Below are positions 2,852 to 13,722 of a DNA stretch of 64,000 nt, one piece after another. Made by a program: the position numbers and the translations under genes. The DNA is from Oxynema aestuarii AP17 (GTDB lineage Bacteria; Cyanobacteriota; Cyanobacteriia; Cyanobacteriales; Laspinemataceae), in contig NZ_CP051167.1 of the NCBI RefSeq assembly GCF_012295525.1, positions 5,877,299 to 5,941,298 of the forward strand. Reading direction: 5' to 3'. A model generated the notes under the pieces. That model did not search any database. It was not told where the DNA came from and saw only the letters and a list, made by a program, of their open reading frames with translations. Position 1 is the stretch's first letter, and the number at the start of each line of letters is the position of its first letter.

Positions 2852-4411
2852 TTACAGGCGATCGCCCCAATCGGTTTCGGGACGCAGAACGGGGGGTTTA
2901 ATATCGCCGAGTCGTTGACCGCGTTCTAAAGCATATTCGATATACTTCTCCATCGGGCGGGAGACGCAACGGGCGACAGGGGGCGCGAGTTGACCCAGTT
3001 GGCGGGCGTAACGATATTGGGGATTGGTTTGTAAGGCCCGGTCTAAGTCCCGGGCGAGGTCTGCGGCCCGATCGCCCGCCGCCTCGTCCAGAAACAGAAT
3101 ATAATGAGGGCGATCGCGCAAGCACGGGGTCAGCATGGCGAAACCGCCAGGATGCAGGGGCTGCAGTTGCGCCCAGACGAAGGCTTCGGTCAATTTTTCC
3201 CCACACAAGTCGCTGACCAGTCCCGCCCGTCCGATAAATTCCAGTTGGGGCGTTTGTCCGTACCATCCCGTCACTCGCACTCGATCGCCCAAGTCGTAGC
3301 GATACAAACCGCCATCGGTGGTGACGACGACTCGATAGACCCCGCCACTTTCGACCTCGTGGACGAGGCGCGATCGCCCGTCCTCGCCGATAAATTCGTA
3401 AAAGCCGCTCTCTACGGCCAATACGGGCGACGGACACCCGGCGATCGGGATCGTCACTGCTGCCTCGGTTGCCAGCAACCCTTTTCCCTGGATCCACACG
3501 TGAGGAAAAGCCCCTTGCAAGGAACGCACAAAAGCGGCGGCACTGGCATCGGTCCAACAGCTAATCGTATCCAACTGCGGCCACAACTGGCGGGTATCGA
3601 TCGCCCCGGAGGCGAGCGATCGTGACACTAAGTGAGCGCGCTCCGGGTTCGGCGGCAGGGGCGGTAACCCGGGAACGGTGGTTCCCCGCGCCAAATCGCG
3701 CACCAGGCGATCGCCGTTTCCCTCGATTTCGGCGAGCAATTCCAGCAAAAACGTGGGACTCCACACGGAAATTAAGGCCAATTGGGGCGACGCCAGCAAG
3801 TATAAAGCCGTGAGATAGCGCCAGCGATCGATCGCGGCGATCGCGGCAATTTGCGGCGGAACGGCGAGCAACTGCACGATGTGAGGGGCGAGGCGATCGC
3901 CAAAATAGAGGGCGTCATTGCCCGTCGGAAGGGTCACCGGGCCGACAGTCGGGGATTGGGGGCGGGCGATCGGCGAAATCGCCCAATAGGTCGGACCGCA
4001 GGCGATTCCCGGGCGATGTGCGAGCAAATTGGCCAACCAGGGAAACAGCGCCCTCTGAAACGCCGCCAAACTCCCTCGGGTGTAGGGAATCAGCTTACTC
4101 CCGGAGGTACTGCCCCCGGTCACTTCAACGGCGATCGCCTCATCGGCGCACAAAACCCCGGTTTCCCCCGCCGCCATCCGAGCGATCGCCTCGGCGAGGT
4201 CCTCGTAGGTGTGAATCGGGACGCGATCGCGATAGTCCCGGTCGTCGGCGATCGTCCCAAAGCCGTACCGCCGCCCGATTTCAGTGGTTTGGTTGCGGGT
4301 GAGAAGGTCGTGGAGGCGCGATCGTTGCACGGCGATCGCGCGATCGGTTGCGTTCGAGAAATCGACCCAAAACGGATCGCAAGCGTCTCGAATAAATTGC
4401 CAGTTTTTCAC
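2852..4411 (-). CDS. GH3 (auxin-responsive promoter) family adenylate-forming protein
   Basis: 519-aa ORF with the VTGGSTSGSKLIPYT motif typical of the GH3 / acyl-adenylate superfamily, and a YEDLAEAIARMAAGETGVLCADEAIAVEVTGG N-terminal region. Confidence 0.6.
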   Translation of the reverse strand: MKNWQFIRDACDPFWVDFSNATDRAIAVQRSRLHDLLTRNQTTEIGRRYGFGTIADDRDYRDRVPIHTYEDLAEAIARMAAGETGVLCADEAIAVEVTGGSTSGSKLIPYTRGSLAAFQRALFPWLANLLAHRPGIACGPTYWAISPIARPQSPTVGPVTLPTGNDALYFGDRLAPHIVQLLAVPPQIAAIAAIDRWRYLTALYLLASPQLALISVWSPTFLLELLAEIEGNGDRLVRDLARGTTVPGLPPLPPNPERAHLVSRSLASGAIDTRQLWPQLDTISCWTDASAAAFVRSLQGAFPHVWIQGKGLLATEAAVTIPIAGCPSPVLAVESGFYEFIGEDGRSRLVHEVESGGVYRVVVTTDGGLYRYDLGDRVRVTGWYGQTPQLEFIGRAGLVSDLCGEKLTEAFVWAQLQPLHPGGFAMLTPCLRDRPHYILFLDEAAGDRAADLARDLDRALQTNPQYRYARQLGQLAPPVARCVSRPMEKYIEYALERGQRLGDIKPPVLRPETDWGDRL

Positions 4412-4485
4412 CTCGTTAAAATTGATACAACTTCACTTAATCTTTGCAACTATAACAGAGTTTTGTTCTCTCAAAATTCAATCTT

Positions 4486-4965
4486 ATGGCAGGAGTTCTT
4501 AAACTTAAGATTCACGAAAGTGGGGAAGAACTTAAAAATTTACTCGCCAAACAAAGCACGGCGCGCGGTCGAGAACGGATCCAAGCTTTGTATTTACTGA
4601 AAATTGGACAAGTTAAAACCCTCAAAGAATTGGCCATTTTGTTAGGTCGAGATACAGCCACCCTTTATCGCTGGTTTCAAAAATATAAAGCTAAGGGTTT
4701 AGACGGGATGTTAGAAGTTAAAAAAGGTCAAGGTCGCAAACCTGCAATTCCCTCAGAAGTGATGGATTCTTTGCGCGATCGCCTCCAAGAACCGAATGGC
4801 TTTCAAAGTTACGGCGAAGTCAAAACATGGCTGAAAGAAAAATTCGATATCGATGCGTCTTATAAGGTCGTTCACGAAGCCGTTCGCTACAAATTAAAAG
4901 TCAAGCTCAAAACTTCTCGTAAAAGGCGCCGCAAGCGCGATCGAGACGTCCAAAAGCGGGAATAA
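4486..4965 (+). CDS. IS630/Tc1-family transposase N-terminal HTH (orfA-like) protein, orphan with no DDE orfB
   Basis: 159 aa: …RIQALYLLKIGQVKTLKELAILLGRDTATLYRWFQKYKAKGLDGMLEVKKGQGRKPAIPSEV…YGEVKTWLKEKFDIDASYKVVHEAVRYKLKVKLK. This is the typical IS630 orfA HTH, the GL-D-PR-GRP linker and a basic tail. No DDE ORF follows. Confidence 0.6.
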   Translation: MAGVLKLKIHESGEELKNLLAKQSTARGRERIQALYLLKIGQVKTLKELAILLGRDTATLYRWFQKYKAKGLDGMLEVKKGQGRKPAIPSEVMDSLRDRLQEPNGFQSYGEVKTWLKEKFDIDASYKVVHEAVRYKLKVKLKTSRKRRRKRDRDVQKRE

Positions 4966-5060
4966 AGCCCCTCAAAAACGATCGCGTTTTCCAGACGCCC
5001 TCCCTCGTCTGAAAAATTGATTCGAGCTAAAAATAGGAGCAATAGCGGGCGATCGCCCGT

Positions 5061-5819
5061 TTAAAAAACCGACGTTTTTAAGTACGGATCTGCCGATTTC
5101 ATTCCTTCAAGAAATCCGCGTTTCGCGTGCGATCGCATATTCTCTTCGGTCAGTTCCATCAAACACACTAACTCGTCGCCGCGATCGTAATTGGGATTGC
5201 GTTCTAAAAAGTAACGAACGTCCGGTTTTTGTCGATATCCCGGCTTAATCTCCGCCCAAATTCCGCTTAAATGTCCCCGAGATGCCGGAAATTGAACTAA
5301 CCCGGTTTCCCGGCGATAGTTGTCGCCAAATTTTAAGATTGCTAAATAATCCATTAAGTCGCGCATCGCATCGGGGGTGGGAGATCTCCAGGTGGGATAA
5401 AAAGATTTCGCAAATACGGGTAAATAGCGATAGGTTCGATATCCTTTGACGATTAAAAACCAATAAAGCGGTAACTGAGGCAATTCAGCTTTAATTTGAC
5501 CCGCCAAGCGACACCACGCCAGGGGTAAGATTTGCTCTCCCCAGTAGGGGCGATCGATAATTGTATCACCGGAAAACAAAGCGCGTCTCGGTTGGTTTTC
5601 CCACTCGAAATCAATAATTTCTAGGGTGGTAAATCCTCGCAAGACTTGGGAACGATCTAATAAAAGAATGGCGCAGTGTTTGCGTGCTAAATCTTCCCTA
5701 AACAGAGACCAATTGGTGCCGCCGTAGTAGTTTTGATAAAGGTCGTACATTTGCCGACATTGTGCTTCGCAAAAGTCGGATTTGAAAATGACGCGATCGG
5801 TAAGTTTATTCATATTCAA
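5061..5819 (-). CDS. Hypothetical protein, 252 aa, W/Y-rich; no family recognised
   Basis: Clean ORF in a lower-GC region; no recognisable motifs (…PYWGEQILPLAWCRLAGQIKAELPQLPLYWFLIVKGYRTYRYLPVF…). Confidence 0.5.
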   Translation of the reverse strand: MNMNKLTDRVIFKSDFCEAQCRQMYDLYQNYYGGTNWSLFREDLARKHCAILLLDRSQVLRGFTTLEIIDFEWENQPRRALFSGDTIIDRPYWGEQILPLAWCRLAGQIKAELPQLPLYWFLIVKGYRTYRYLPVFAKSFYPTWRSPTPDAMRDLMDYLAILKFGDNYRRETGLVQFPASRGHLSGIWAEIKPGYRQKPDVRYFLERNPNYDRGDELVCLMELTEENMRSHAKRGFLEGMKSADPYLKTSVF

Positions 5820-6068
5820 TGAGAACGAGTTGCGGCATTCTCTAGTTCAAAAAAATGGCAAATTTCAAAAAAAATGGCAGATACATGAAAAAGGGATAGA
5901 CTTGACGATCGCCCTCCCCCTCTAAAAGGGTAAAATAAAGCTCGCGAGATTCAATTTAAAAGTTGTCAAAATTTGTCAAAATTAACGATTGAACTCGTGA
6001 TTTTAGGTTCCGTTCTCTCGCCCCGTTTTTACGAAGTCGATCCGAGTTCCGATTCCCGGAATCGGCGC

Positions 6069-6233
6069 CTAACTTTCCGAGGGGGAAGGAACCCGAATTT
6101 TGCGGATCAGTTCGCGAATGACATCGGTTTTCGTCCGTTTGTTGAGATCGCAGTAGGTTTCCAAGCGTTCGAGTTCGACTGCAGGGAGGCGAATGGTTAA
6201 AACTTTATCCGATAATCTTTTTTTATTAGACAT
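6069..6233 (-). CDS. Ribbon-helix-helix (CopG/Arc-like) small DNA-binding protein, about 54 aa
   Basis: Manual translation: MSNKKRLSDKVLTIRLPAVELERLETYCDLNKRTKTDVIRELIRKIRVPSPSES. The beta-strand LTIRLP followed by two helices is the RHH signature. Below the 60-aa ORF-track cutoff; coordinates +/-2. Confidence 0.55.
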   Translation of the reverse strand: MSNKKRLSDKVLTIRLPAVELERLETYCDLNKRTKTDVIRELIRKIRVPSPSES

Positions 6234-6797
6234 GATACTTCCAAAAGTAGTACAACTCTATTATGACGAGGGCTTCCACGAGCCGCAATAGCCCGACGCC
6301 TCGATGCGCCATCCCACGGCGGCGATCGCTCTCGACCCCATCGAACCCTGGGTGAGTTCAAAAGAGCGCATTTGTAGGCTTCCCGCTTTTATTTCAAAAT
6401 GTAAAATTAATGTCAATTAACTTTTATTTTTGTAAAGTTTTTCAACTCGATTGACGAGCCCTGGGCGGGTCAAAAGACAATCGACCCCAGCCTTGAATTG
6501 TGGGGAGCTAACGGGAATGGGATCCACAAAAGCTAGCTCGTTTGTACCCCGGGAACGATCGCGACACGGCGATCGCACTCCCCGATTGCTACCCGGCATC
6601 CGTTCGAGGCGATCGCCGCTTCAACGCTTGACGAGACAAGGATTTCGCAAGGATCGACCCCGCTAAACTCCGAGCGGCGATCGACCCCTTACCACGGCGG
6701 CGATCGCAGGGAGGCGATCGAAAAAAACGCCGACAAATTTTGTGTTATAGTTGCATCAGTTAATTTTTCCTTTATGACCATCGCATAATTCAATCAA

Positions 6798-7253
6798 ATG
6801 GCAAAGACCTTAAATTTAGATATCCAAGAAAGTGCCGAAGAACTTAAAGCCCTGCTCAAACAACAAACCAACGCCCAACGTAAAGAAAGAGTCCATGCTT
6901 TATATTTACTCAAATCCAATCAAGTCACCACATTAGAAGAACTCTCGAAACTGCTGGTCAGAGATACCTCAACCATTTATCGCTGGTTTCAAAAATACAA
7001 ACAAGAAGGGTTAGACGGATTGCTCAAGCTCTACGAACCCGCAGGCAGACCGATTACAATTCCCCAAGAAGCTTTAGATAAATTGCGCCTCAAGCTGCAA
7101 GAACCGGAAGCATTCAAAAATTATGGGGAGATTCAAATCTGGCTCAAAGAAGAATGCGGCGTCGAGGTCGATTATCACGTCGTCTATCGCGCCGTCCGCT
7201 ATAAATTTAAAGCCAAATTAAAAAGTTCTAAATCCAGCCGAAAAAAAAAATGA
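6798..7253 (+). CDS. IS630/Tc1-family transposase N-terminal HTH (orfA-like) protein, paralog of 4486..4965, orphan
   Basis: 151 aa, collinear with the 4486 ORF at roughly half identical positions (…ALYLLKSNQVTTLEELSKLLVRDTSTIYRWFQKYKQEGLDGLL…AGRPITIPQEA…YGEIQIWLKEE…VVYRAVRYKFKAKLK). No DDE ORF downstream. Confidence 0.6.
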   Translation: MAKTLNLDIQESAEELKALLKQQTNAQRKERVHALYLLKSNQVTTLEELSKLLVRDTSTIYRWFQKYKQEGLDGLLKLYEPAGRPITIPQEALDKLRLKLQEPEAFKNYGEIQIWLKEECGVEVDYHVVYRAVRYKFKAKLKSSKSSRKKK

Positions 7254-7359
7254 TCGCCGGGTTAGTTTAATAAAATAAACCGTCAGTCATCATCTTTGAG
7301 ATTGGATTGACAACCTATCGCCATTCCCATCTAGCGAATAGAGGAAGTTTACGATCGAA

Positions 7360-8247
7360 ATGTCTCAATTTATCAAAGGGGGGCAAGTCGCCTGGTTTCA
7401 CGACGAAGGACATCCCGCCGGAATCTTTCATACTTACGACCAGTTTAGCGGCATCGACGGGAGCGATCGCCCGCGCAAAATCCATATTTTCTTACCCCGA
7501 AACTACGAAACCAGCGAAGATCGCTATCCGGTGGTTTACATGAACGACGGTCATACCGCCTTTTTCCGGGCCGGATTGGCGCGTCAGTCCTGGCAAGTCG
7601 CCGAACGGTTGGGGGAATTGTACGATCGCGGTGCGATTCCGAAACTGCTCGTCGTCGCCGTGCATCCACTCGACCGCGATCGTGAGTATACACCCGATAT
7701 TACTCCCAGTCTCGAACCCTCCGGGTTGGAAACCTACGCACCCTATTTAGTCAATTCCGTCAAAGGATTTGTCGATCGCCACTACCGCACCCGACCGGAA
7801 AACTCACAAACGACCGTGGTAGGGGCGGGACGGGCCGGACTAGCCGCCTTTTACATCGCCTGTCGCTACGGCGATCGCATCGGCAATGGGGCGGCGATGT
7901 CCCCCTCATTTTTCGTCGGTTTGGAGCGCGACGAAGACCTGTTTACCTCCCTGTCGCGATCGCCCCTGCTCAAACTGACCGGATCGGCGTTGGCCGATCG
8001 CGCCCGTCGTCCCCGTCTGTGGCTGGATTGGGGCTTAGTCCGCGACGGCACGGATCACAACAGCGCCATCGAACGGCAGACGACCAAGCGCGGGCGAGAA
8101 ATGGCCGAGTTGTTGCAGTATAAATACGGCTATCTCCGCGATCGTGACTTATTCGTGCGGGAAGATCCCGAGGGAGAACATTGCGAGGCGTCGTGGTCGC
8201 GACGGTTTCCCGAAATGTTAAAAGCCTTCTACGAAAAGTCTCACTAA
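7360..8247 (+). CDS. Esterase-family (PF00756-like, enterochelin/siderophore-esterase-like alpha/beta hydrolase) protein; the nucleophile motif may be degenerate
   Basis: 295 aa; …IHIFLPRNYETSEDRYPVVYMNDGHTAF…LLVVAVHP… The expected GxSxG position reads GAGRAG. Confidence 0.5.
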   Translation: MSQFIKGGQVAWFHDEGHPAGIFHTYDQFSGIDGSDRPRKIHIFLPRNYETSEDRYPVVYMNDGHTAFFRAGLARQSWQVAERLGELYDRGAIPKLLVVAVHPLDRDREYTPDITPSLEPSGLETYAPYLVNSVKGFVDRHYRTRPENSQTTVVGAGRAGLAAFYIACRYGDRIGNGAAMSPSFFVGLERDEDLFTSLSRSPLLKLTGSALADRARRPRLWLDWGLVRDGTDHNSAIERQTTKRGREMAELLQYKYGYLRDRDLFVREDPEGEHCEASWSRRFPEMLKAFYEKSH

Positions 8248-10779: not shown

Positions 10780-11035
10780 CCCTCGATCGCCTCTCGTCAG
10801 AACCCTTTTAAAAGTAACAGCAACTAACCGATCTATCTCCTATTCTTTCTGGTTGGCTATTCTCCTACAGCCGGGATTAAAATCAATAGGAATAGATTTG
10901 CATGTTCGTCGAATCAATTCTTCTGACTTCTGCTAAAATGAAATATGCTATGACATTGTAAACATCACATGAAACAAAAATCATCATAATTTCCACCATA
11001 ATTCAAATCTTAGCATTGATAATATCTCGTCGTGG

Positions 11036-12124
11036 TTGACAATGAAAAGAATTACCTTTGCAGATATTTTTGCTGGAATAGGAGGGTTTAGAATTGGCCT
11101 AGAGCGCTTGGGCTTTGAATGCCTTTATTCTTGTGAAAAAAACGAAGCTTGTCGGCAAGTTTACTTTGACAATTTTGGTGACTTGCCAGAAATGGATATC
11201 TCCGATATTGATTTTTCTAAAATTCCAGATGTCAATATTATAACGGCTGGGTTTCCCTGTCAACCCTTTAGTATTTGTGGAAAAAGAAAAGGATTTTCCG
11301 ATCGACGAGGCACTATTTTTTTCCATCTGTGTAATCTCTTACAAGCCAAAAAGCCGGATGTAGCAATTCTTGAAAATGTCAAACACTTGCTTCATTTAGA
11401 AAAAGGATCTGTTTTTGAAGAAATCATTACTACTCTGGAAGATTTAGATTACTTCGTTCGCTATAGTTTACTCAATGCCAAAGATTTTGGACTCCCTCAA
11501 AATAGGGAACGTGTTTTTATTGTCGCCTCCAAGCATAAGCCATTTAATTTTTCACGAATTAAACCAAAATTAAAGATTCCACAGCTTAAAGAATTCTTGT
11601 CAAAAACCGGAGACTTTCAATATATTGATGACTCTGAATATACTCTAATTAAGCATCCAAAACAACAAGATTCAGGATTGATCTTTGTTGGTTATCGTAA
11701 TAAAAGTATTTGGAAAAAAGGCATTCGTCCCCATACCGAACACTTATCTCGCGTTCACCGACAACCCAACCGAATTTATTCCGTGGAAGGGGTACATCCT
11801 ACTTTACCTTCACAAGAATCCTCCGGACGGTTTTTTATTTACTTACCAGAAGAGAATCGGGTACGTAAGCTAACCATTGAAGAATGTTATCGGATTATGG
11901 GGTTTCCAAAATCCTTTAAAAGAAATGCTAGTTTAAGTGAAGCCTATAAACAAATTGGAAACTCAGTGGCAACGAATGTTATTTATGAGTTAGGAAAAGA
12001 AATAATGGAACAAAAACTAACGGTTCCATGCTCAAAATTTAATAATAGAGCTCGAGGTTTTAAAAAATCAGAAAAACCGATTCAGCTTACGATACCAGGC
12101 TTGCGGTTAACTCACTGCAATTAA
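11036..12124 (+). CDS. DNA (cytosine-5)-methyltransferase, orphan (no adjacent REase or Vsr)
   Basis: Motif I FADIFAGIGGFRIG, motif IV GFPCQPFS, ENVKHLL, and C-terminal QIGNSVA. Lies in an AT-rich, HIP1-free island. Confidence 0.85.
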   Translation: MTMKRITFADIFAGIGGFRIGLERLGFECLYSCEKNEACRQVYFDNFGDLPEMDISDIDFSKIPDVNIITAGFPCQPFSICGKRKGFSDRRGTIFFHLCNLLQAKKPDVAILENVKHLLHLEKGSVFEEIITTLEDLDYFVRYSLLNAKDFGLPQNRERVFIVASKHKPFNFSRIKPKLKIPQLKEFLSKTGDFQYIDDSEYTLIKHPKQQDSGLIFVGYRNKSIWKKGIRPHTEHLSRVHRQPNRIYSVEGVHPTLPSQESSGRFFIYLPEENRVRKLTIEECYRIMGFPKSFKRNASLSEAYKQIGNSVATNVIYELGKEIMEQKLTVPCSKFNNRARGFKKSEKPIQLTIPGLRLTHCN

Positions 12125-12324
12125 AAAGTGCATGATTTTCGATCGTAAAAATATACGTAAAAATATAGAGATTTGAGGATCGTGGGCATTGCCCACCCTA
12201 CTTGTTTTGTTTTGTCTTAAGTTATAAGAAATTGGTGATTTTAGAACGTCGATCGCCAGTCATACCGAGGATTGACTGTTTTAGCGTTGAGGAGGCTGTT
12301 GCAGAGTTGATAACTCATCCATAA

Positions 12325-13722
12325 TTGCAAACTTGCGCTAGCGTAGAAAATGCAATTTCATGCGATCGCGAACTGTCCGTGTTTGAAAAGAACTGCTCGA
12401 TCCGACTCCTGACTTTACTGGGACTGCTACTTTCGCTCACCGCCTGCGCGAACACGCCGGGTTCCAAACAGTTAGAAGACTCCCTCGCCCCCGATCCCAA
12501 ACTGAAAGACAACCCCGAATTGCTCGGAGGTTCTACGCCGTCGCCCTCTCCCGGGGCCACTCCAACTCAACTCCCGGAAGATTTTCCGAGGGAAATTCCG
12601 CAATATAACAACGCCGAATTGCAAAGTGTCAGCCGCAGCACTTCGGAACGATCGTCGCCACAAACTGAGGAAACGCCTAGGGTAACGACCCTTTGGGAAA
12701 CGGGCGATCGCGGCGATCGCGTCCGGCAATTCTATCAAACCCATTTTGAAGAAAACCAGTGGGAAATTCTGCCGACACCTGCCACAGAAACCCAAGGCGA
12801 TCGCTCCGTGAGTGCGCGCAAAGATAACTTGCAAGTCACAGTGGAGATCGTCAGCCAACCGAGCGACACCCCCACCGAATTTAGCCTCACTTACGAGCTT
12901 GAGAGCGCCACCAGTACCGCTAAAACACCGGAAACCTCAAAAAGCTCGACAACAACTGAAAAGGCCACAGAGACAACATTAGAGACAATTACCGAACCCT
13001 TGCGCCCTTACGTGAGCGACTTGCAACAACTCGGGATCCTGTCCCTGAAAGCGACATCCAGCGACGCCGACGCCGACGCGTGGAATCAGGCGATCGCCCG
13101 AGCCCAATATGCCGAATGGCTGATCGCTGCCAACAATCGCTTTTTCGACAACCAACCGAGCAAACAAATTCGCCTCGCCACTCCCAGTACCCAACCTGCC
13201 TTTCAAGATGTTCCCGCCACCCATCCGCAATTTGCGGCGATTCAGGGATTGGCGGATGCGGGAATTATCCCGAGTTCGCTCACCGGAGAGAATACGGCGG
13301 TTAACTTCCGTCCGGACGCCCCATTATCGCGCGAAGATGCGATCGCCTGGAAAGTCCCCCTCGATTTTCGCCAAGGATTACCTAAAGCATCGGTAGAAGC
13401 GGTGCGAGAAGCGTGGGGGTTTCAAGATGTCCCGAAAGTCGATCCGGCGATTCTCCCGGCGATTTTGGCAGACTATCAAAATGGAGAATTATCGAACATC
13501 CGGCGCGCTTTCGGTTACACCCGTATTTTCCAACCGAAAAAAGAAGTAACGCGGGCGGAAGCGGCGGCGACCTTGTGGTATTTTGGCGATCGCAACGAGG
13601 GTTTATCCGCCACAGATGTTGTCAACCGTCAGCCGACCCCTCAAGCTAATCCCCAGACGGGCGATCGCACCAATGTTCGATCCTCCGAACCGCCAACCAC
13701 TCCAGAAAATCAAGAAAATTAA
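12325..13722 (+). CDS. Lipoprotein with C-terminal SLH (S-layer homology) domains
   Basis: Lipobox LLSLTAC; Pro/Thr/Ser-rich linker; SLH-like FQDVPATHPQFAAIQGLADAGIIP and FQDVPKVDPAILPAILADYQNGEL…RAEAAATLW. The true start may be internal. Confidence 0.6.
   Translation: MQTCASVENAISCDRELSVFEKNCSIRLLTLLGLLLSLTACANTPGSKQLEDSLAPDPKLKDNPELLGGSTPSPSPGATPTQLPEDFPREIPQYNNAELQSVSRSTSERSSPQTEETPRVTTLWETGDRGDRVRQFYQTHFEENQWEILPTPATETQGDRSVSARKDNLQVTVEIVSQPSDTPTEFSLTYELESATSTAKTPETSKSSTTTEKATETTLETITEPLRPYVSDLQQLGILSLKATSSDADADAWNQAIARAQYAEWLIAANNRFFDNQPSKQIRLATPSTQPAFQDVPATHPQFAAIQGLADAGIIPSSLTGENTAVNFRPDAPLSREDAIAWKVPLDFRQGLPKASVEAVREAWGFQDVPKVDPAILPAILADYQNGELSNIRRAFGYTRIFQPKKEVTRAEAAATLWYFGDRNEGLSATDVVNRQPTPQANPQTGDRTNVRSSEPPTTPENQEN

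Follow-up and report, generated by a model that had tools for sequence, protein, structure and literature searches.

In the filamentous cyanobacterium Oxynema aestuarii AP17, two plus-strand genes within a 64,000-nucleotide stretch of the genome (contig NZ_CP051167.1, forward-strand positions 5,877,299 to 5,941,298; hereafter the window, with positions counted from its first letter) encode small helix-turn-helix (HTH) proteins that we name HTH-A and HTH-B. Judged by their sequences, both descend from OrfA, the product of the first open reading frame (ORF) of insertion sequences (IS) of the IS630 family, the catalytic DDE part and the right end of the element having been lost. With a confidence slightly above even, we propose that they are domesticated OrfA DNA-binding domains acting as local, autoregulated regulators. 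An earlier note, made from the letters alone, had hesitated between a decayed composite element and domesticated regulators. The evolutionary and cis-element evidence presented here favours domestication, the regulatory role itself being a prediction.

HTH-A and HTH-B retain only the DNA-binding part of an IS630 transposase

Both proteins match the Pfam families HTH_32 and HTH_23 above the curated cut-offs. Against the NCBIfam model NF033545 (IS630 family transposase), HTH-A and HTH-B cover only positions 2-129 and 5-120 of 299, respectively, and these matches fall below the full-length cut-off. The profile searches agree with the earlier note, which had recognized in each gene nothing more than the N-terminal HTH part of an IS630/Tc1 transposase; its estimate that about half of the positions are identical is matched by BLASTP (75 of 135 residues, 56%, E = 1e-54). 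It had also seen no orfB with a DDE domain. Indeed, tblastn with the DDE_3 orfB of a true relative gave no match in the 64-kb window at E ≤ 1e-3, and the C-terminal halves of seven full-length IS630 transposases found no catalytic remnant in 4000-8000, which includes the DNA downstream of both ORFs, even at E ≤ 10. The spacers to the next gene, 95 bp after HTH-A and 106 bp after HTH-B, leave no room for a DDE part downstream. A weak DDE-like match at 27.9-28.6 kb lies inside an AAA ATPase gene and was discarded, since it is no transposase. Each HTH gene is present as a single copy in the window. The features of the locus are listed below.

2852-4411, minus strand: GH3-type adenylating (acyl-acid amido synthetase-like) enzyme, from Pfam GH3, GH3_M and GH3_C matches
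4412-4485: divergent GH3/HTH-A intergenic region of 74 bp and 28% GC, with the relic IS end and presumably both promoters
4412-7359: compositionally distinct tract (GC and GC3) of about 2.95 kb holding HTH-A, GNAT, RHH and HTH-B
4425-4437, plus strand: outer box, ATACAACTTCACT, of a relic of the IS630 left terminal inverted repeat, from the MAFFT alignment with true IS left ends
4445-4457, plus strand: 13-mer TGCAACTATAACA, at the position of the inner TGATAC box of the IS end
4486-4965, plus strand: HTH-A, stand-alone bipartite HTH protein of 159 residues, assigned to an IS630 OrfA origin with Pfam and NCBIfam
5037-5058, minus strand: terminator-like hairpin and T-run directly 3' of the GNAT stop codon, from a terminator search
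5061-5819, minus strand: GNAT-fold acyltransferase-like protein of 252 residues converging on HTH-A, from a structural model and Foldseek
6069-6233, minus strand: ribbon-helix-helix (RHH, CopG-like) protein of 54 residues, from a borderline Pfam RHH_1 match
6743-6755, minus strand: second 13-mer, inverted (plus-strand reading TGTTATAGTTGCA), extended -10-like and 43 nt upstream of HTH-B
6798-7253, plus strand: HTH-B, second stand-alone HTH protein of OrfA type, 151 residues, from a separate orthologous group
7360-8247, plus strand: esterase, from ORF and family assignment

Stand-alone genes and true IS630 elements form distinct classes

With HTH-A as query, a word-indexed search gave 95 homologues, all of 91-191 residues and, apart from a few fragments, of 131-191 residues, with no full-length transposase among them. 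The homologues of HTH-B constitute a separate set (146-199 residues, 60-75% identity). When 1.8 billion representative proteins were searched with a profile, 3,007 relatives were recovered, most of them 140-180 residues long; full-length IS630 transposases (306-358 residues) are scattered among them, and their N-terminal 150 residues are 41-51% identical to HTH-A and HTH-B. Homologues are annotated either as 'putative transposase' or as 'helix-turn-helix domain-containing protein'. The first label inflates mobile-element counts, and both mask a conserved host gene family.

Genomic context was read in the best 80 of 115 genome-scan matches, with one representative genome per species, to which loci from a context look-up were added. 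None of the loci at least 58% identical to HTH-A, which belong to Oscillatoriales, Pleurocapsales, Thermostichus and others, carries a DDE ORF. At or below 57% identity, the loci are mostly from Nostocales, and in nearly all of them a DDE_3 orfB follows after about 80 bp. Copies of this second class duplicated within a genome are 99.5-99.9% identical in three genomes and 88% identical in a fourth, which identifies the class as true IS630 elements. The duplicates have a length of about 1.14 kb in common and are bounded by inverted ends (left, TACCATTTCACTAAAA..TGATAC; right, TACCAATTCACGAAAA..TGAT). The orfA/orfB junction of one of them (L015, 6476-6486) contains an A8 slippery run; frameshifted IS630 elements are established, and the product of the upstream ORF can act alone as a regulator (PMC5009743). 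At the 3' end of HTH-B (7235-7253), an A10 run, CGAAAAAAAAAATGA, recalls that A8 run, and no second frame follows it.

Five proteins of 413-1312 residues (P0255, P0286, P0291, P0296 and P0279) contain 3-17 tandem matches to the IS630 HTH profile. They may be fused arrays of HTH modules, or mis-assembled or concatenated IS copies.

HTH-A and HTH-B belong to host genes under purifying selection

The synteny comparison that had been suggested earlier revealed stand-alone orthologues at conserved positions in other genera. A-type genes occur in at least six lineage-specific conserved groups, with the following gene orders.

Laspinema, Oscillatoria and Phormidium pseudopriestleyi: XRE, 282-residue protein, (restriction-modification genes), HTH, GNAT, caspase/WD40, PdxJ
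L012, L023 and L014: 200-residue protein, HTH, RHH, sugar ABC transporter
L003, L032 and L041: YidD, HTH, AMIN-amidase, racemase
L006 and L036: LysM-M23, HTH, NUDIX
L038 and L039: HTH with a neighbour pair of its own, common to both loci
Thermostichus and Synechococcus: SMC-like, Mre11-like, HTH, RskA

The B-type orthologues of Laspinema palackyanum and Phormidium pseudopriestleyi are placed between DUF1997 and CheB/CheR genes, without DDE sequence. In Oxynema sp. CENA135, the order GH3-A-GNAT-RHH-B-esterase is identical to that of the window. The dN/dS ratios against this species (Nei-Gojobori, dS of about 0.2) are 0.056 for HTH-A and 0.026 for HTH-B, and other orthologue pairs with unsaturated dS gave 0.05-0.23. 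Besides, the HTH genes of other genomes have a GC content that follows their locus (54-56% in Thermostichus, for example). Synteny, selection, composition and orthology together support domestication and exclude decaying pseudogenes.

These observations bear directly on the idea that two IS630 copies once surrounded an RHH/252-residue cargo as a composite transposon, whose catalytic parts and ends were later lost. In its favour, the two IS630-type genes are related, point in the same direction and enclose two other genes, the composition of the tract is foreign, and the terminal A10 run of HTH-B recalls an IS slippery site. Nevertheless, dN/dS values of 0.03-0.06 indicate that both HTH genes are maintained, and HTH-A and HTH-B, 56% identical, belong to different orthologous groups, which in other genera occur singly, each at a syntenic position of its own. 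The region 4000-8000 holds no DDE remnant even at E ≤ 10, neither gene has paired ends, at least 13 loci have the HTH-A/GNAT pair but no B copy, and the GNAT 'cargo' partners with GH3, which lies outside the supposed element at 2852-4411. A decayed composite is thus contradicted by purifying selection, by stand-alone syntenic orthologues and by the GNAT/GH3 partnership, and we consider it very unlikely. The description of two paralogues bracketing a cassette does not extend beyond Oxynema, as A-type and B-type genes occupy unrelated loci in other genera.

A relic of the IS630 left end lies in register upstream of HTH-A

The 110 nt upstream of GNAT-paired A-type genes are strikingly conserved across genera in which synonymous sites are saturated. 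Aligned by MAFFT, A-type upstream regions and true IS left ends match without gaps through this stretch and keep the same register relative to the start codon: the true left end reads ATACCATTTCACT...TGATAC and the A-type sequence ATACAACTTCACT...TGCAAC, with eleven invariant columns in the first alignment block (columns A50-T62). Upstream of HTH-A, the relic is laid out as ATACAACTTCACT-N7-TGCAAC, and its inner box (4445-4450) is the start of the 13-mer. Of the 31 stand-alone loci that were examined, 12 carry the pattern TTCAC-N8-TGCA between -54 and -59, the background frequency being 0.003 per 120 nt; the pattern is present in Oxynema, Phormidium CCY1219, the L012 group, the Laspinema group, Microcoleus (L032), L041 and Stenomitos (L037). 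True IS copies display TTCAC-N8-TGAT at about -52, and a relaxed search for the end pattern matched almost only true IS ends and A-type upstream regions. Finally, O. aestuarii and CENA135 have identical sequences (100%) in the 74-bp spacer between GH3 and HTH-A, compared with 94-96% identity in coding DNA and 78-93% in other spacers. An initial register of the relic (TTTCAC...TAAAA...TGATACA with a 3-4-nt insertion) was replaced by the simpler gap-free ATACAACTTCACT/ATACCATTTCACT register.

The absence of terminal inverted repeats reported in the earlier note is correct insofar as no pair of inverted repeats bounds an element, but it had missed the left-end relic upstream of HTH-A. No match to the right end of IS630 was found on the minus strand, and nothing comparable to the left-end relic was found around HTH-B. 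Regarding the TA target duplication whose presence was to be checked, the relic end is preceded by TTG rather than TA and, as there is no right end, none can be defined. A candidate for the inner box of a right end, GAAAAATTGATTCGA at about 5010-5025, was rejected since it is in the wrong orientation, is no more than chance would give (9 matches, 5.6 expected) and is not kept in orthologous loci.

The 13-nt motif TGCAACTATAACA is perfect at 4445-4457 and recurs inverted at 6743-6755. In about 1.7 Mb of fetched loci, every occurrence of the 11-mer TGCAACTATAA is upstream of an A-type gene or, in inverted orientation, of Oxynema HTH-B. The copy upstream of HTH-B is kept in CENA135 and absent upstream of the B-type orthologues of Laspinema and Phormidium. 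An interpretation of this inverted repeat as the ends of an element was dismissed: no TA or other duplication lies beside the arms, the arms are inside the low-GC tract, and the B-side arm is specific to Oxynema. A promoter consensus scan detected no convincing sigma-70 site upstream of HTH-A or HTH-B, and promoter assignments were made by eye only. Read on the minus strand, the 13-mer (TGTTATAGT) resembles an extended -10 element about 34 nt upstream of the GH3 start. The 13-mer at 4445-4457 is put forward as a candidate operator or -10 region that would serve HTH-A and, in the opposite direction, GH3; the inverted copy, in its plus-strand reading, could serve as the HTH-B promoter. In the transposase of ISY100, an N-terminal domain with two HTH motifs binds the inverted repeats of its own element (PMC2170065), which makes the relic a natural candidate binding site for HTH-A. 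As an IS end kept in register, it is a candidate operator open to direct test.

The tract is compositionally foreign in Oxynema

Genes of the tract 4412-7359 have a GC content of 41-45% and a GC3 of 39-49%, whereas the GC3 of GH3, the esterase and an aminotransferase is 64-69%. The lower GC noticed earlier is thus real, although the segment is not merely flanked by the two HTH genes but includes them. This composition points to horizontal transfer, as an acquisition or a replacement, ahead of the split between the two sequenced Oxynema species. Since GH3 is host-like in composition, unlike the tract, one may speculate that the A-GNAT side was replaced by recombination anchored in GH3.

Such a composition also invites another view: A-GNAT-RHH-B, or the relic end together with its HTH gene, would form a mobile but non-autonomous, or a horizontally transferred, module, carried along by recombination or by IS630 transposases acting in trans, and the HTH genes would have persisted as its passengers. 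The contrast in GC3 (39-49% in the tract, 64-69% in the flanks), the lack of flanking synteny common to Oxynema and other genera, the perfect 13-nt inverted repeat (4445-4457 and 6743-6755) and an upstream cis element that travels with the gene into different contexts all speak for such a module. However, the 13-nt arms are inside the tract rather than at its edges and are flanked by no TA or other duplication, the HTH-B-side 13-mer is restricted to Oxynema, and no right-end relic was found. Within lineages, moreover, the genes are syntenic across species and genera with a host-like composition, and GH3 relics in another genome (L035, see below) suggest an ancestral GH3-A-GNAT order instead of a chance landing. 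For these reasons, we regard a mobile module as quite unlikely.

HTH-A separates a GH3/GNAT enzyme pair

The minus-strand RHH and 252-residue genes that had been placed between the HTH genes are both present, at 6069-6233 and 5061-5819. The assignment of the 252-residue protein to an unknown family holds for Pfam and NCBIfam, neither of which gives a match, but not for its fold. Its AlphaFold2 (AF2) model has a GNAT alpha/beta fold (pLDDT 94), and Foldseek against the Protein Data Bank (PDB) returned 128 matches at E ≤ 1e-3, down to 2e-6, led by AAC(2')-Ia, NatD and YhbS; the toxin AtaT appears more weakly (ranks 38-44, E of about 1e-4). More than 1,190 homologues of about 45-65% identity are found in cyanobacteria, Gammaproteobacteria, Neisseriaceae and Acidobacteria. 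In 80 metagenome loci of this protein (GNAT-252), a Rieske-type oxygenase and a membrane protein typically precede it, and a GH3-type gene follows it directly in at least 49; the window GH3 is 46-50% identical to these GH3 proteins. A cyanobacterial locus (L186) has the order membrane protein, GNAT, fatty-acid-desaturase-like protein and GH3, with no HTH gene. More generally, an operon comprising a Rieske-type oxygenase or a fatty-acid-desaturase-like protein, a membrane protein of about 215 residues, a GNAT-fold protein of 240-260 residues and GH3 (L107-L185, L186) is widespread in cyanobacteria, Proteobacteria and Acidobacteria. The orphan of 252 residues is thereby placed in the GNAT fold and tied to a widespread uncharacterised operon.

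Because GH3 is the usual operon partner of GNAT-252, HTH-A in Oxynema sits, on the opposite strand, between the members of a functional gene pair. The convergent HTH-A/GNAT pair is kept in at least 13 loci. In one of these, L035, collinear GH3 fragments survive on the expected strand 5' of the HTH gene; the best of them has 16 of 31 identical residues over the conserved motif GR.G..D.CGEKL. These fragments suggest that GH3-A-GNAT may be the ancestral order of the GNAT-paired subclade, GH3 having been lost later in the Laspinema group. They lie at 5470-5801 (minus strand), are similar to GH3 residues 45-87 and 393-423, and look like a GH3 pseudogene with large deletions.

The RHH gene matches Pfam RHH_1 just under the cut-off (E = 8e-4). 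Its orthologues, 69-76% identical, converge on A-type HTH genes in L009/L033, L012, L014 and L023, with or without GNAT, and its DNA is 99.4% identical between the two Oxynema species; no RHH match was found in the 80 GNAT metagenome loci. RHH is a lineage-specific companion of A-type HTH genes in one subclade.

Since an RHH gene is upstream of a GNAT-fold gene on the same strand, and since AtaT is among the Foldseek matches, the two could be read as a type II toxin-antitoxin pair of the AtaRT, TacAT or KacAT type, with the HTH genes as unrelated neighbours. What likens them to these systems is the pairing of an RHH and a GNAT-fold protein on the map, together with the weak AtaT fold matches; what separates them is the gene spacing, the protein size, the independent distribution of RHH and GNAT, and the GH3-operon context. 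Indeed, the 249-bp RHH/GNAT gap is the least conserved DNA of the tract, RHH occurs without GNAT in L012, L014 and L023, and GNAT occurs without RHH in Laspinema-group loci and in 80 of 80 metagenome loci. The GNAT protein, with its 252 residues, is about 50% identical across phyla within GH3/oxygenase/membrane-protein operons, and PADLOC gave no match. The independent distribution of the two genes renders the toxin-antitoxin reading unlikely, and we grant it hardly any credence.

The only terminator-like site in 4200-7500 is the GNAT hairpin at 5037-5058. It also explains a sub-threshold RAGATH-25 match (19 versus 49 bits) in the Rfam scan of 3800-8000, which was set aside.

The predicted fold of HTH-A is closest to paired-like DNA-binding domains

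The AF2 model of HTH-A (pLDDT 82) comprises two helical subdomains, residues 13-75 and 90-136, joined by the linker KKGQGRKPAIP and followed by a disordered basic tail. In Foldseek, the best matches by TM score are the Pax5 and Pax6 paired domains, the SETMAR DNA-binding domain on its terminal inverted repeat, and Mos1. A search of PDB sequences with the HTH family profile identified no solved relative.

Like the OrfA of two-ORF IS630 elements (the Nostocales copies, in a family that includes ISY100 of Synechocystis), HTH-A and HTH-B have a bipartite HTH and equal length up to KLKxKLK; their identity to IS630 OrfA proteins, and to the N-terminal parts of full-length transposases of the family, is 41-57%, and a homologous left-end sequence lies upstream of HTH-A at an equal distance from the ATG. 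Unlike these elements, they have no orfB/DDE_3, no slippery site leading into a second frame, no right end and no demonstrable TA duplication, each is present once in the window, and they are held at fixed syntenic positions under strong purifying selection. A second comparison is offered by SETMAR, the Pax paired domain and CENP-B, derived from Tc1/mariner or pogo elements, in which a paired-like end-binding HTH was retained, transposition was lost and a site derived from the terminal inverted repeat was kept. HTH-A and HTH-B differ from SETMAR-type binders in being bacterial, free-standing proteins of about 150 residues with no fused partner domain and with a single relic as candidate cognate site; the likeness to SETMAR and Pax is one of analogy and shared fold class, not of demonstrated orthology. 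Finally, in IS1 (InsA) and the IS3 family (OrfA), a small DNA binder from the upstream frame binds the ends of its own element and can by itself serve as a regulator (PMC5009743). Those regulators work inside an intact mobile element, whereas HTH-A and HTH-B have outlived theirs as genes maintained by the host.

A model for local regulation and its rivals

According to the scenario that we favour, an ancestral two-ORF IS630 would have lost its catalytic orfB, its right end and its mobility, while the paired-like HTH with its GRKP/GRP linker and basic tail was kept as a chromosomal gene. HTH-A would still bind the relic end, as the N-terminal domains of IS630/ISY100 transposases do with inverted repeats, and thereby repress or tune its own promoter and the divergent GH3 promoter. 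In this way, the GH3/GNAT enzyme pair on either side of it would come under its local control. HTH-B, with the inverted inner-box 13-mer in its promoter, is probably tied into the HTH-A circuit, and the RHH protein may be a second small regulator of the module.

Several observations weigh against this proposal or narrow its reach. Position and conservation are the grounds on which a regulatory role is predicted. Both the relic end and the 13-mer coincide in part with plausible -10/-35 elements, so that their conservation could reflect promoter function alone. The A-clade genes of Thermostichus, L003, L006, L038-40 and L043 have no TTCAC-N8-TGCA and stand beside unrelated genes, which implies that a GH3/GNAT-specific role is not general, and the Laspinema group has no GH3 and yet retains the upstream element. 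The tract is compositionally foreign in Oxynema, so some horizontal movement of the module did occur. The Foldseek E-values of the HTH-A model (0.02-0.4) are not significant, probably because its subdomains move freely. As to the family history, a neighbour-joining tree groups all A-type stand-alone genes in one clade, beside a few full-length transposases, and puts B-type genes elsewhere, beside another full-length transposase; this tree is crude and fits one as well as several domestications, and A/B duplication as well as independent origins.

The main rival holds that the HTH proteins are kept as trans-acting inhibitors of IS630 transposition ('immunity'), binding inverted repeats and blocking transposase binding or synapsis. 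Their sites would be the ends of incoming or resident IS630 elements, of the TACCATTTCAC type. Truncated transposases and OrfA proteins of other IS families provide precedents, and OrfA-type products can regulate transposition alone (PMC5009743). HTH-A and HTH-B are essentially the end-binding domain of a transposase, the 64-kb window contains no IS630 DDE sequence, and immunity would explain conservation in very different neighbourhoods. Among the 80 kept loci, no genome has both a stand-alone gene and a true two-ORF copy, but this non-overlap, read by eye rather than computed and covering the best 80 of 115 matches with one representative genome per species, tracks taxonomy (Nostocales versus Oscillatoriales and Thermostichus). 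Moreover, the cis element has diverged from the IS end (TGCAAC versus TGATAC), suggesting a private site rather than surveillance of IS ends, and the tight conserved pairing with GNAT, GH3 and RHH is not predicted by immunity. We thus view immunity as a serious but improbable explanation.

A broader hypothesis, to which we attach a similarly low probability, sees in these genes an old, vertically kept cyanobacterial family of free-standing IS630 end-binders, with two or three paralogues per genome, which would recognise sites derived from terminal inverted repeats and either control a small regulon of such sites or confer a heritable, dominant-negative 'immunity' that shuts the cognate IS630 subfamily out of the genome. 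If true, this family would be the bacterial counterpart of SETMAR or of KP-type repressors, for which we found no bacterial report.

Eukaryotes offer well-documented examples of domesticated transposase DNA-binding domains (Pax, CENP-B, SETMAR). To our knowledge, clear bacterial cases backed by orthology, synteny and selection are scarce. Our literature search retrieved no description of domesticated IS630 HTH genes in bacteria, including cyanobacteria.

Neighbouring genes and spacers

In two lineages, stand-alone HTH genes lie beside defence or repair clusters: NUDIX and Wadjet JetABCD-like genes in one (L006/L007, 8459-15576), and SbcCD-like and NurA/HerA-like genes in the other (L008, 1-6729). 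This adjacency may be a coincidence, as other lineages are devoid of it. A defence role was not retained, PADLOC having yielded no match for HTH-A, GNAT and RHH and only weak HTH-type matches for HTH-B. In some genomes of the Phormidium/Laspinema group, a NotI-like restriction enzyme and a D12-class methyltransferase are variably inserted as a pair just 5' of the A-type HTH gene (L009, 5107-6664; L025, L031 and L057), which suggests that this site is an insertion hotspot.

A second low-GC tract of the window (10800-12400, 35-38% GC) contains a C-5 cytosine DNA methylase gene (11036-12124). In CENA135, the orthologous methylase gene is followed by a gene for a SacI-like restriction enzyme (L104, 11521-12456), and the tract is probably a horizontally acquired restriction-modification island.

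The 564-bp RHH/HTH-B spacer (6234-6797), whose ORFs have no Pfam match, contains several GCGATCGC (HIP1) sites; at 50% GC it exceeds the surrounding genes, and it is 93% identical in CENA135. Between the two Oxynema species, no DNA of the region varies more than the HTH-B/esterase spacer (7254-7359, versus L104 6457-6729), with 167 gap columns; in CENA135 this spacer carries about 165 extra bp with a small called ORF.

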